Shown: one piece after another, positions 5,986 to 7,570 of the stretch
Layout: every line of letters begins with the position of its first letter
How positions within the stretch are numbered: position 1 is the stretch's first letter
Virus record (IMG/VR): IMGVR_UViG_2531839665_000021
Span: 1 to 9,548 of that record
DNA from: a virus
Lineage: Duplodnaviria; Heunggongvirae; Uroviricota; Caudoviricetes
Reading direction: 5' to 3' (one strand)
DNA length: 9,548 nt
Notes under the pieces: generated by a model
The model's input: only the letters and a program-made list of their open reading frames with translations
What the model was told of the DNA's origin: nothing
Database searches by the model: none
Made by a program: the position numbers and the translations under genes

Positions 5986-6255
5986 CTATTTCATTCCGCC
6001 AATATTTTCCCACGTCCCGTCAGCACGCAGGATTTGCAGCGGTCTTACCACGCACTGTATCTGCTTTTTATCCGCATCCAGTATCACCACCTGCGTGATT
6101 ACCCTGGCCTGCTCCGGAATAATGCCATTCTCATCGGACTCCAGAATGTCTGCCGGCCCCAGTCGCAGCTGTACTGTAAGCGACTGCCCGTGTTCACGGC
6201 CATCATGCTTTCCGCAACCGCACAGACGCTGCATAAGTTTTTTTAGTATGTTCAT
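5986..6255 (-). CDS. small phage protein (89 aa) resembling the C-terminal domain of the adjacent tail fibre
   Basis: ATG at 6253..6255 preceded by a strong AGGAGA RBS. The protein (MNILKK...LRLGPADILESDENGIIPEQ...DGTWENIGGMK) aligns with the Stf C-terminus (RFRLGPASIIETNSNGWFPGT...DGPWQDV). The ORF-track version starts 44 codons further upstream, inside stf in another frame; I take that extension as spurious. Confidence 0.6.
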   Translation of the reverse strand: MNILKKLMQRLCGCGKHDGREHGQSLTVQLRLGPADILESDENGIIPEQARVITQVVILDADKKQIQCVVRPLQILRADGTWENIGGMK

Positions 6256-6256
6256 G

Positions 6257-7570
6257 TCATTCTCCTGTTCTGCCTGTATCACTGCCCACTTCATCCAGCC
6301 CCTTAACATCCTGCCACGGCCCGTCACCAAACCTGACCTGCAAATGCTGAAACAGCCCCTGAACCTGTGTGGCATCTTTGGGGTCAAGAAAGGTCAGTCC
6401 GGTGATGAGCGCACCATCTGTACCCGGGAACCAGCCATTGCTGTTTGTCTCAATAATGCTCGCCGGCCCCAGACGAAAACGGATTTGTGTCTCCCCCGGG
6501 TCGCCCTTCGGTCCCTGAGGTCCGGTTGCCCCCACCGGGCCAGCCGCACCTGTTTCTCCTTTCGGTCCCTGTGGGCCAGCCGGGCCTGCCGCACCGGTAT
6601 CTCCCTTTGGACCCTGTGGACCTGCATTTCCCGTCAGACCGGTCTCTCCCCGCTCTCCCCTGTCGCCTTTCGGTCCCTGTGGTCCTGCCGGACCAGCATC
6701 ACCTGTCGCCCCCCGTTCGCCGGTTGCCCCGACAGGGCCGGTGTCACCACGCTCTCCCTTATCCCCCTTCGGCCCCTGAGGGCCAGCGGGCCCCTGTTCC
6801 CCCTTTGGCCCGGGAGGTCCCACCACGGTGGGGATTCGGTTTACGGCGTCTTCCGCCGCTATCCTGCTTTGTTCCGCTGACTGTGCGCTTTCTGCTGACT
6901 CCCGGGCTTTTTCTGTTGCGGTCGTTGCATCCCTGGCTGCATTACCGGCTGCACTTTCTGCCGTCTTTTTTGACAACTCAGCATCTGCTGCACTTTGTGA
7001 TGACTCACTGGCTTTTTGAGCAGCCGCAGAGGCCGAGGACGAGGACGCCTCCTCTGACTGCTTTGCAGCGGCTGCACTTTCTGCCGCCTGCCGGGCTGAC
7101 TCCGATGCATCCCCTGCTGAAGTGTCAGCATTTGCAGCGCTCTCTTCTGCCTGACTGGCTGATATGCCGGCATTCCTCGCGGACGTCTCCGCCTCTCCGG
7201 CATTCTTCTTCGCCTCCTCAGCATGACGCGCCGCTTCTTCCACCATCAGTTCAAAACGACGCAGTGCCTCCGGCCGGACGTCATCCTCCGACATGGCACC
7301 GAGAAAATCATTCAGCGTACCCGGTTGAGAATCTTCATACACGGTGATGGTCCCGGCATGTGACGGCGGGAATCCTTCCACCAACAGAATGACGCTGTAC
7401 TGACCGTACTCAACGTCCATGCTGTAACGACCGGCTTCATCCGGATTTTCAGAGGCCACCGTGTTCACCACCACCGTGCTGCTGGTCCGTCTGGCTTTCA
7501 GTTGAATGGTGCAGTTCTCTACCGGTTTTCCTGTGCCGTCTTTCAGTACACCTGAAATCTTTACTGCCAT
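6257..7570 (-). CDS. stf: side tail fibre protein Stf with collagen-like repeat region
   Basis: N-terminus MAVKISGVLKDGTGKP...SHAGTITVYEDSQPGTLNDF matches the lambda Stf N-terminal domain as I recall it. Followed by an Ala/Ser/Glu-rich segment, about 36 Gly-X-Y triplets, and a C-terminal globular domain. Start set at the ATG at 7568..7570; the track start at 7576 is a GTG two codons upstream. Confidence 0.9.
   Translation of the reverse strand: MAVKISGVLKDGTGKPVENCTIQLKARRTSSTVVVNTVASENPDEAGRYSMDVEYGQYSVILLVEGFPPSHAGTITVYEDSQPGTLNDFLGAMSEDDVRPEALRRFELMVEEAARHAEEAKKNAGEAETSARNAGISASQAEESAANADTSAGDASESARQAAESAAAAKQSEEASSSSASAAAQKASESSQSAADAELSKKTAESAAGNAARDATTATEKARESAESAQSAEQSRIAAEDAVNRIPTVVGPPGPKGEQGPAGPQGPKGDKGERGDTGPVGATGERGATGDAGPAGPQGPKGDRGERGETGLTGNAGPQGPKGDTGAAGPAGPQGPKGETGAAGPVGATGPQGPKGDPGETQIRFRLGPASIIETNSNGWFPGTDGALITGLTFLDPKDATQVQGLFQHLQVRFGDGPWQDVKGLDEVGSDTGRTGE
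6491..6820 (-). repeat. collagen-like Gly-X-Y triplet repeat block inside stf
   Basis: Protein residues about 253..361 read GPPGPKGEQGPAGPQGPKGDKGERGDTG... with recurring GPQGPKG units; the underlying DNA is a GC-rich imperfect 9-nt periodic repeat. Confidence 0.85.
6842..7249 (-). repeat. Ala/Ser/Glu-rich low-complexity segment inside stf
   Basis: Residues about 110..245 are dominated by A, S, E, K and Q with recurring ESA, SAE and AES motifs, as in the alanine/serine-rich shaft of lambda Stf. Confidence 0.6.

Follow-up and report, generated by a model that had tools for sequence, protein, structure and literature searches.

A translated and constrained paralogue of the side tail fibre knob encoded directly downstream of stf in lambdoid and Shiga toxin prophages of Escherichia coli

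In a lambdoid Escherichia coli prophage, the side tail fibre gene (stf) is followed by a small open reading frame (ORF) of 89 codons whose product is a paralogue of the distal knob of the fibre itself. The window analysed here is a stretch of 9,548 nucleotides (positions 1 to 9,548 of the IMG/VR record IMGVR_UViG_2531839665_000021, Caudoviricetes), which comprises the tail end of this prophage followed by an effector locus; a chromosomal region of E. coli strain CD45 matches 97% of the window at 99.2% identity. Far from being a silent cassette, the small ORF is a real late gene that is translated; its translation is coupled to that of stf, it is under strong purifying selection that extends to its start and its N-terminal extension, and it follows fibres of the same knob type in both lambda-like and 933W-like phages. 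Its product is not a major component of the virion. We tentatively propose, with a probability of roughly 0.4, that it is a non-essential accessory factor acting at or near the fibre tip and mostly not retained in virions.

The small ORF belongs to an annotated and previously discussed gene family. The PGAP name for exactly this coding sequence (CDS) is ‘phage tail fiber C-terminal domain-containing protein’, and the paralogy, on record since 2016, is incorporated in both Pfam and PGAP. What is new here is the evidence for purifying selection, the structure of the junction with stf and the resulting coupling, the linkage in two types of phage, the module boundary, a 14-nt limit on the identity shared with the fibre gene and the trace of peptides in virions. 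The analysis thereby narrows the function to that of a translated, constrained protein that is neither an essential chaperone nor a major virion component.

Homology with the fibre knob

BLASTP aligns residues 28-88 of the small ORF with residues 365-427 of Stf (23/63 identities, 37%; 60% positives; 2 gaps; E = 9e-12). The 64-position Pfam model PF06820 (Phage_fiber_C, or PfC) is matched completely in both proteins, at 1.2e-34 in the small ORF (residues 28-89; 118.9 bits against a gathering cut-off of 25) and at 3.6e-36 in Stf, with a threshold of E ≤ 0.01 for the family search. Taken together, these two results place the paralogy far beyond chance. An earlier note on this DNA, made from the letters alone, had proposed that the small ORF is a paralogue of the Stf C-terminal domain on the strength of an ordered series of motifs and had named a lack of significant similarity on formal pairwise alignment as a refutation; the BLASTP alignment is significant, the motifs recur in it in the same order and the paralogy is thus upheld. 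Ten residues are invariant across both PfC subfamilies (G44, P47, I53, T54, L59, L73, Q74, D79, G80 and W82), and the 89-position profile of PHROG 576 (phrog_576) is matched at positions 1-89/89 by residues 1-89 of the small ORF (E = 2.2e-59). Two details of the earlier description require correction. The 18-nt patch common to positions 6145-6162 and 6455-6472, given as 16 of 18 identical, has 15 of 18 identical; it lies on the homologous R-L-G-P-A codons, and a second match to this 18-mer with at most three mismatches has a chance expectation of 0.01. Similarly, the interval 5986-6400 assigned to the feature contains the gene only at 5986-6255, the remaining 145 nt (6256-6400) being the 3′ end of stf.

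The fibre PfC has been characterized in the EPclA and EPclB fibres (Ghosh et al. 2012, PMC3368898), where the Stf PfC was demonstrated by size-exclusion chromatography with multi-angle laser light scattering (SEC-MALLS) to be a trimerization domain that trimerizes autonomously and re-nucleates the collagen helix. The small ORF carries the same domain at full length, with the ten invariant residues in common. It differs in being a stand-alone 89-aa cistron, with its own ATG and Shine-Dalgarno sequence and with no collagen match in Pfam. It also lacks the 11-residue tail DEVGSDTGRTGE of the fibre PfC and is only 37% identical to it. In the position occupied by the collagen stalk in the fibre, it has instead a 27-residue extension with a CxC motif, of which the LCGCGK motif is retained in the Citrobacter rodentium protein. 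A lipoprotein reading of the ‘LCGC’ was set aside on inspection, there being no hydrophobic signal-peptide core ahead of the motif, and a metal site of the form CxC...H...H was rejected as its histidines are not conserved in C. rodentium and in some E. coli alleles.

Structure prediction was another check suggested in the earlier note. AlphaFold2 (AF2) monomer models of both domains place five strands in the same order at aligned positions; however, both are of low confidence, with a predicted local distance difference test (pLDDT) of 55 for the small ORF and 54 for the Stf C-terminus, and were built from nearly the same set of sequences. Low pLDDT is to be expected, since the PfC domain is a trimer according to Ghosh et al. 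The small-ORF model has an additional N-terminal helix at residues 3-11, likewise at low confidence. Foldseek against BFVD returned no match at E ≤ 0.001, and sequence and profile searches of the PDB gave no usable match. PF06820 is the sole Pfam match of the small ORF, no tail-fibre-assembly family being found, which bears out the remark in the earlier note that the arrangement is not that of the lambda Tfa type. An NCBIfam search of the small ORF gave no match. A role as a defence system was dropped as no PADLOC model matched at E ≤ 0.1, whether the 89-aa or a 133-aa version of the product was searched. The 133-aa ORF, which reaches 6387, is merely the same frame left open through stf, and in 10 of 74 related loci this frame contains a stop 13 codons upstream of the small-ORF ATG.

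Translation, selection and linkage with the fibre gene

The counts that follow are drawn from 80 related loci gathered from IMG/VR. Of these loci, 76 have an intact 89-aa frame, one has a frame of 87 aa and three lack the MNILKK start. The ATG lies 1 nt after the stf TGA, forming a junction of stop, C and ATG, and 75 of 77 loci share this junction, ...CAGGAGAATGACATG, without any change, including the Shine-Dalgarno sequence, which is annotated as a ribosome-binding site in phage 434. The two exceptions are IS66 insertions between stf and the small ORF: in L064 (348-2963) and L044, the insertion point of an IS66-family element of three ORFs falls precisely in the gap from stf stop to small-ORF ATG, and the element uncouples the two genes. 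No sigma-70-like promoter emerged between stf and its small neighbour in a simple scan. Upstream of stf, in the interval following lom, there is a terminator-like hairpin at 7587-7608 (minus strand; 8 bp, of which 7 are G-C, followed by TTTTTTG), and phage 434 has an annotated terminator at the same position, so that stf and the small ORF presumably depend for their expression on antiterminated late transcription.

Sixty distinct DNA alleles of the small ORF give proportions of synonymous (pS) and non-synonymous (pN) differences of 0.114 and 0.016, respectively, and hence a pN/pS of 0.14, compared with 1.1 and 4.5 for the other two reading frames. Within the gene, pN/pS is 0.10 for the PfC part (58 alleles) and 0.35 for the N-terminal 27 codons. 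The PfC of Stf has a value of 0.26 (40 alleles, those bearing indels having been removed), so that the small-ORF PfC is approximately 2.6-fold more constrained than its counterpart in the fibre; a previous value of 0.62 for the Stf C-terminus was discarded, having been inflated by indel-bearing alleles (0.24-0.26 after filtering). These are pooled pairwise values from related, recombining sequences and are descriptive, although the contrast with the control frames is unambiguous.

Translation is supported by the proteome of phi24B virions, given in the supplement of a cryo-EM preprint (10.64898/2026.04.10.717836). The peptides VITQVVILDADKK and ADGTWENIGGMK, each with 3 peptide-spectrum matches (PSMs), are present in the small ORF and absent from the fibre. 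The fibre itself (gp61) is represented by 2267 PSMs in total and by up to 181 for a single peptide (same supplement). The authors assigned both peptides to the entries ‘gp59_start’ and a hypothetical ‘Fusion_6159’, annotated ‘Spike or just gp59?’, and the main text of the preprint does not mention gp59 (10.64898/2026.04.10.717836). In the by-sample table, the fusion entry exceeds gp61 in sample EA1829 only (25 versus 24). As judged from the peak positions of portal, capsid and gp84, this sample is a low-molecular-weight band, a weak hint that the signal comes from a free 10-kDa protein rather than a fusion. A frameshift fusion of stf with the small ORF was also considered and rejected. The small ORF lies in the +1 frame with respect to stf. 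A fusion would need a +1 or -2 shift, and the lone slippery-looking heptamer, CCCAAAG, is phased as XXX_YYY_Z and would serve a -1 shift only; the early stop in the overlapping frame of the 10 loci mentioned above likewise counters it. Mondal et al. (2016, PMC5155283) also found no frameshift signal.

The earlier note had suggested looking for the small ORF in other prophages and for fusions with a fibre gene. It proved to be widespread in E. coli, occurring in 698 of 5426 complete genomes at 6817 places (median of 11 matching places per carrying genome), and fused forms among the database proteins amounted to only two singletons, which are considered below. The PfC sequence of stf occurs in 697 of the same 5426 genomes at 6159 places, the excess of small-ORF places probably representing truncated copies like the one found in the window. 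The small ORF is also present in 296 phage records, including phage 434 and 933W-like phages encoding Shiga toxin (Stx), and in C. rodentium and E. albertii. A profile search of 1.84 billion cluster representatives gave 84 matches, nearly all of them fragments from Escherichia. A scan of species-representative genomes gave three loci. In one, a 725-bp contig assigned to ‘Xanthomonas pisi’ DSM 18956, the small ORF is 92% identical, and another, a contig of a ‘Clostridiales’ metagenome-assembled genome, has ORFs that read as lom and a near-identical stf; neither is accepted as a distant relative, both being probably contaminated or mis-binned records that contain E. coli prophage DNA. The sole clear PfC relative found outside the enterobacteria is a metagenomic phage protein (P0242; L084 3505-5202) with four tandem PfC-like repeats N-terminal to a collagen stretch. 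Its repeat pattern, …VVVLDADxxTATGQMGILQVRRADGTWxEIPALKG, is closer to the small-ORF subtype than to the Stf subtype, and no small downstream PfC ORF is found at that locus.

The same junction of fibre tip and small ORF is found behind the 437-aa EPclA fibre of phage 434, a siphovirus, and behind the 645-aa EPclB fibre of PA2, a 933W-like short-tailed phage. The orthologues in phage 434 (CPT_434_24), Sp5 (ORF68, ECs1229) and phi24B (gp59) are the same gene: each encodes 89 aa at 92-99% identity, is separated from the fibre gene by the same 1 nt and matches phrog_576 over its full length. They differ in context, the small ORF of the window standing after an EPclA-type (lambda-like) fibre and before nleG, and those of Sp5 and phi24B after the 645-aa EPclB fibre of a short-tailed phage. 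The Sp5 gene has been studied directly: Mondal et al. (2016, PMC5155283) described ORF68 and deleted it without loss of infectivity, the supplement listing primers for an individual in-frame deletion. They counted it among the non-essential late genes, and found the fibre gene, ORF67, to be essential (PMC5155283).

Possible roles of the small protein

The accessory-factor reading rests on five observations: the position of the gene in the slot of a fibre assembly factor, its strict linkage with PfC fibres on two phage chassis, its constraint, its dispensability and the trace level of its product in virions. In lambda, the slot after stf is occupied by the Tfa gene. The collagen stalk, PfC, small ORF and terminator constitute one mobile module common to lambda-like and 933W-like phages. 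According to the proposed scheme, the small protein would be made in step with Stf, late in infection. In the lysing cell it would exist as a free, homotrimeric knob from which three short N-terminal arms project; such a trimer is suggested by the autonomous trimerization of PfC and by the retention of the ten invariant residues. It could then act in trans, helping or transiently capping the fibre tip through PfC-PfC contacts, and would largely be left behind when virions are released.

Comparison with known systems gives this proposal both a precedent and its limits. Like lambda Tfa and the Caudo_TAP proteins (Mu U, P2 G), the product comes from a small gene that closes the late operon, right behind that for the fibre. 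Unlike them, it has no sequence relationship with these families and is homologous to its presumed client rather than having a chaperone fold, and it is dispensable where the fibre is essential. The record of phage 434 labels it a ‘tail fiber assembly chaperone’, with no supporting similarity given. A functional precedent for an accessory or cap role is provided by Alteromonas phage A5, where a dispensable fibre chaperone has been proposed to act as a ‘transient cap’ (PMC10579305). In that system, too, a small cognate gene and its fibre travel as a module between unrelated morphotypes and the fibre is functional alone (PMC10579305). However, the A5 chaperones resemble intramolecular chaperone domains rather than the knob of a fibre.

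Several findings weigh against an accessory role. It is not obvious how a paralogue of its client's own knob would aid assembly. Full-length recombinant Stf (rEPclA) trimerizes in BL21 without the small ORF (PMC3368898). The Sp5 ORF68 deletion was outside the nine non-infectious mutants and the two of reduced infectivity (PMC5155283), and the host used, K-12 MG1655, has no small-ORF paralogues. No similarity of the small ORF to chaperone families was found in the Pfam, NCBIfam and PADLOC scans, and the monomer AF2 models of both domains are uninformative. The assembly or chaperone-like role raised in the earlier note therefore survives only in part: the position and translational coupling fit it, but an essential chaperone is excluded, as the Sp5 deletion mutant infects and Stf trimerizes alone. 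With a lower probability than the accessory reading as such, the small ORF may represent an undescribed kind of accessory factor, in which a paralogue of the knob would act by homotypic knob-knob contacts, either as a transient cap or as a holdase for nascent C-termini. Should this hold, the role might be evident only under particular conditions, for example close to 42 °C, where the collagen stalk melts, or with natural hosts bearing O-antigen, and such a factor would affect the spread of prophages carrying Stx and effectors.

Collagen-like fibres of the PfC type are found on most lambdoid and Stx prophages of enterohaemorrhagic and enteropathogenic E. coli, and the phages that bear them transfer genes for Shiga toxin and type III effectors from strain to strain. 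A conserved, dispensable partner gene linked to every such fibre is consequently a plausible modifier of assembly or adsorption in natural hosts. Establishing its role would close a minor gap in the biology of Stx phages and leave the major concepts as they are.

Among the alternatives, a soluble decoy or receptor blocker, one of the possibilities listed in the earlier note, is improbable. Knobs freed at lysis would occupy the receptor on debris or neighbouring cells, and so shield progeny from unproductive adsorption or modulate superinfection. Such a function would suit a late-operon product that has no signal peptide, is dispensable in laboratory plaque and lysogenization assays and is present at only trace level in purified virions, and the isolated PfC does trimerize by itself (PMC3368898). 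Nevertheless, a decoy for the same receptor should track variation in the fibre, and the small-ORF PfC shares only 37% identity with the fibre PfC and is more than twice as constrained (0.10 versus 0.26). The phi24B preprint, moreover, argues that the fibre tip is not the binder of BamA (10.64898/2026.04.10.717836).

Equally improbable is the ‘reservoir’ proposed for Sp5 ORF68 by Mondal et al. (2016, PMC5155283), in which the small ORF serves as a stored PfC cassette able to replace the fibre tip and thereby change its specificity. Two chimeras speak for such exchange. In L001/P0066 (GCA_038404665.1 contig, 1-330; seen in 2 samples), an in-frame deletion has joined the collagen region of stf (window position 6711) to the small-ORF PfC (6166) at approximately 10 nt of microhomology, and in P0190 the N-terminus of the small ORF is fused to the C-terminal half of an Stf-type PfC. 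Both are singletons, however, and L001 lies at the end of a 3.3-kb short-read contig; they indicate that illegitimate exchange is possible but rare, and exchange leaves the selection on start, extension and protein sequence unexplained. Efficient RecA-dependent exchange generally needs 20-30 nt of identity; in a comparison of 60 small-ORF alleles with 45 stf C-terminal alleles, no identical run exceeded 14 nt, a shortfall that counts against the reservoir. The polymorphic residues of the Stf PfC differ from those of the small ORF, giving no sign of gene conversion. Nor does the locus qualify as a host-range switching cassette of the kind represented by Mu G/Gin, P1 C/Cin, shufflons or diversity-generating retroelements: the two PfC copies are in direct orientation with no inverted repeat joining them, and in a Pfam scan of the seven largest products, neither an invertase nor a reverse-transcriptase domain was found. 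A silent cassette, furthermore, needs no conserved start codon, Shine-Dalgarno sequence or extension and would yield no peptides. The suggestion in the earlier note of an alternative tip exchanged by homologous recombination is accordingly disfavoured by the shortness of the shared runs, by purifying selection across the whole ORF and by the rarity of chimeras.

A stoichiometric distal cap or adhesin, in which a trimer sits end-on to the Stf knob and forms the true receptor-binding tip, as gp38 does in phages of the T2/S16 type, appears slightly less probable again. In its favour are the position of the gene, immediately downstream of that for the fibre, and the detection of its peptides in a preparation of purified virions. 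There is also a precedent for supplying a distal domain from a small ORF of its own: in phages described by Matusiak et al. (2025, PMC12309495), Ig-like domains are proposed to be encoded by ORFs of approximately 10 kDa that likewise lie directly downstream, here of some tail-spike genes, and are predicted to be trimeric. In those phages, however, the spike is without the domain and the small ORF supplies it, whereas Stf retains a PfC of its own, to which the small ORF adds a further, diverged one. The 3 PSMs of each small-ORF peptide, set against 181 for a single fibre peptide and 2267 for the fibre, correspond to at most a few percent on a molar basis; the deletion mutant is infectious although the Sp5 fibre gene is essential; and so low an amino-acid variability would be unusual for a receptor-binding tip.

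The least likely alternative is a lysogen-side (moron-like) function, as for lom or the downstream effectors, or no function at all as a hitch-hiking duplicate, for although the gene lies near lom, at the boundary between late operon and effector cargo, and the family hardly occurs outside prophages of Escherichia and C. rodentium, a scan found no promoter-like site upstream of this stf-coupled gene, no defence-system model matched, the gene is equally present in 933W-like phages with no effector locus after it, and a pN/pS of 0.10-0.14 rules out a neutral duplicate.

Module boundary, gene layout and neighbouring features

A G+C-rich hairpin follows the small ORF (Table 1). A 65-nt stretch containing it folds at -28.4 kcal/mol, and a hairpin lies within 80 nt of the small-ORF stop in 66 of 70 related loci; phage 434 has a terminator annotation for it. 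In 61 of 70 loci, similarity with the others is lost 25-75 nt past the stop, just beyond the hairpin, and only 8 loci (of L002-L081) share at least 500 nt of downstream cargo. Conservation of the late operon thus extends no further than the small ORF and its terminator, the latter forming the boundary of the variable effector locus.

A partial second copy of the small-ORF 3′ end, with its own hairpin at 5076-5106, sits between the two nleG genes of the window. It is 88-90% identical between 5043-5208 and 5911-6083 (84.7% over 144 nt by blastn), and the nleG units repeat with a period of approximately 872 nt. The copy looks like a recombination scar, as if effector cassettes had been swapped or duplicated with the small-ORF 3′ end and terminator as an anchor. 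Phage 434 (L082, OL657226.1) also carries a degraded type III effector locus: positions 3938-7148, after the small ORF, contain an NleB-like pseudogene, two NleC-like genes and an NleH fragment.

Table 1. Features of the window, in window coordinates
Feature	Position	Strand	Remarks
J, C-terminal part	8301-9491	minus	
lom	7635-8234	minus	
stf, side tail fibre, EPclA architecture	6257..7576	minus	439 aa from GTG 7576
Stf PfC, distal knob, residues 365-428	6293..6484	minus	PF06820 positions 1-64/64
Shine-Dalgarno AGGAG for the small ORF	6262..6266	minus	within the last stf codons, 6 nt before ATG
Small ORF, 89 aa + stop	5986..6255	minus	PGAP CDS WP_001023432.1, identical coordinates
N-terminal extension of the small ORF, residues 1-27, MNILKKLMQRLCGCGKHDGREHGQSLT	6175..6255	minus	from alignments
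PfC of the small ORF, residues 28-89	5989..6174	minus	PF06820 1-64/64, 1.2e-34
G+C-rich hairpin + T run, intrinsic-terminator-like	5944..5974	minus	self-complementary 31-mer, inverted-repeat arm I1
nleG-family gene	5298-5873	minus	
Partial second copy of small-ORF 3′ end + hairpin	5043..5208	minus	direct repeats D3/D4
nleG-family gene	4432-5013	minus	
DUF4765 protein, 1128 aa	868-4254	plus	

The start of Stf assigned by PGAP is the ATG at 7570, giving 437 aa, rather than the GTG at 7576. Its domains follow the order PfN, coiled coil, collagen and PfC (Pfam, with EPclA as in PMC3368898), and its Pfam matches are phage_tail_N (6.3e-69), Collagen (3.7e-18) and Phage_fiber_C (see above). The DUF4765 protein presumably serves as a type III effector whose catalytic domain is CNF-like, as suggested by the match of its C-terminal residues 944-1125 to the CNF1-family deamidase model at 74 bits, against a family cut-off of 950. 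The remaining end of the window (1-473, minus strand) is a remnant of an ISL3-family transposase (Pfam DDE_Tnp_ISL3, 4e-14), which PGAP annotates as a frameshifted partial pseudogene.

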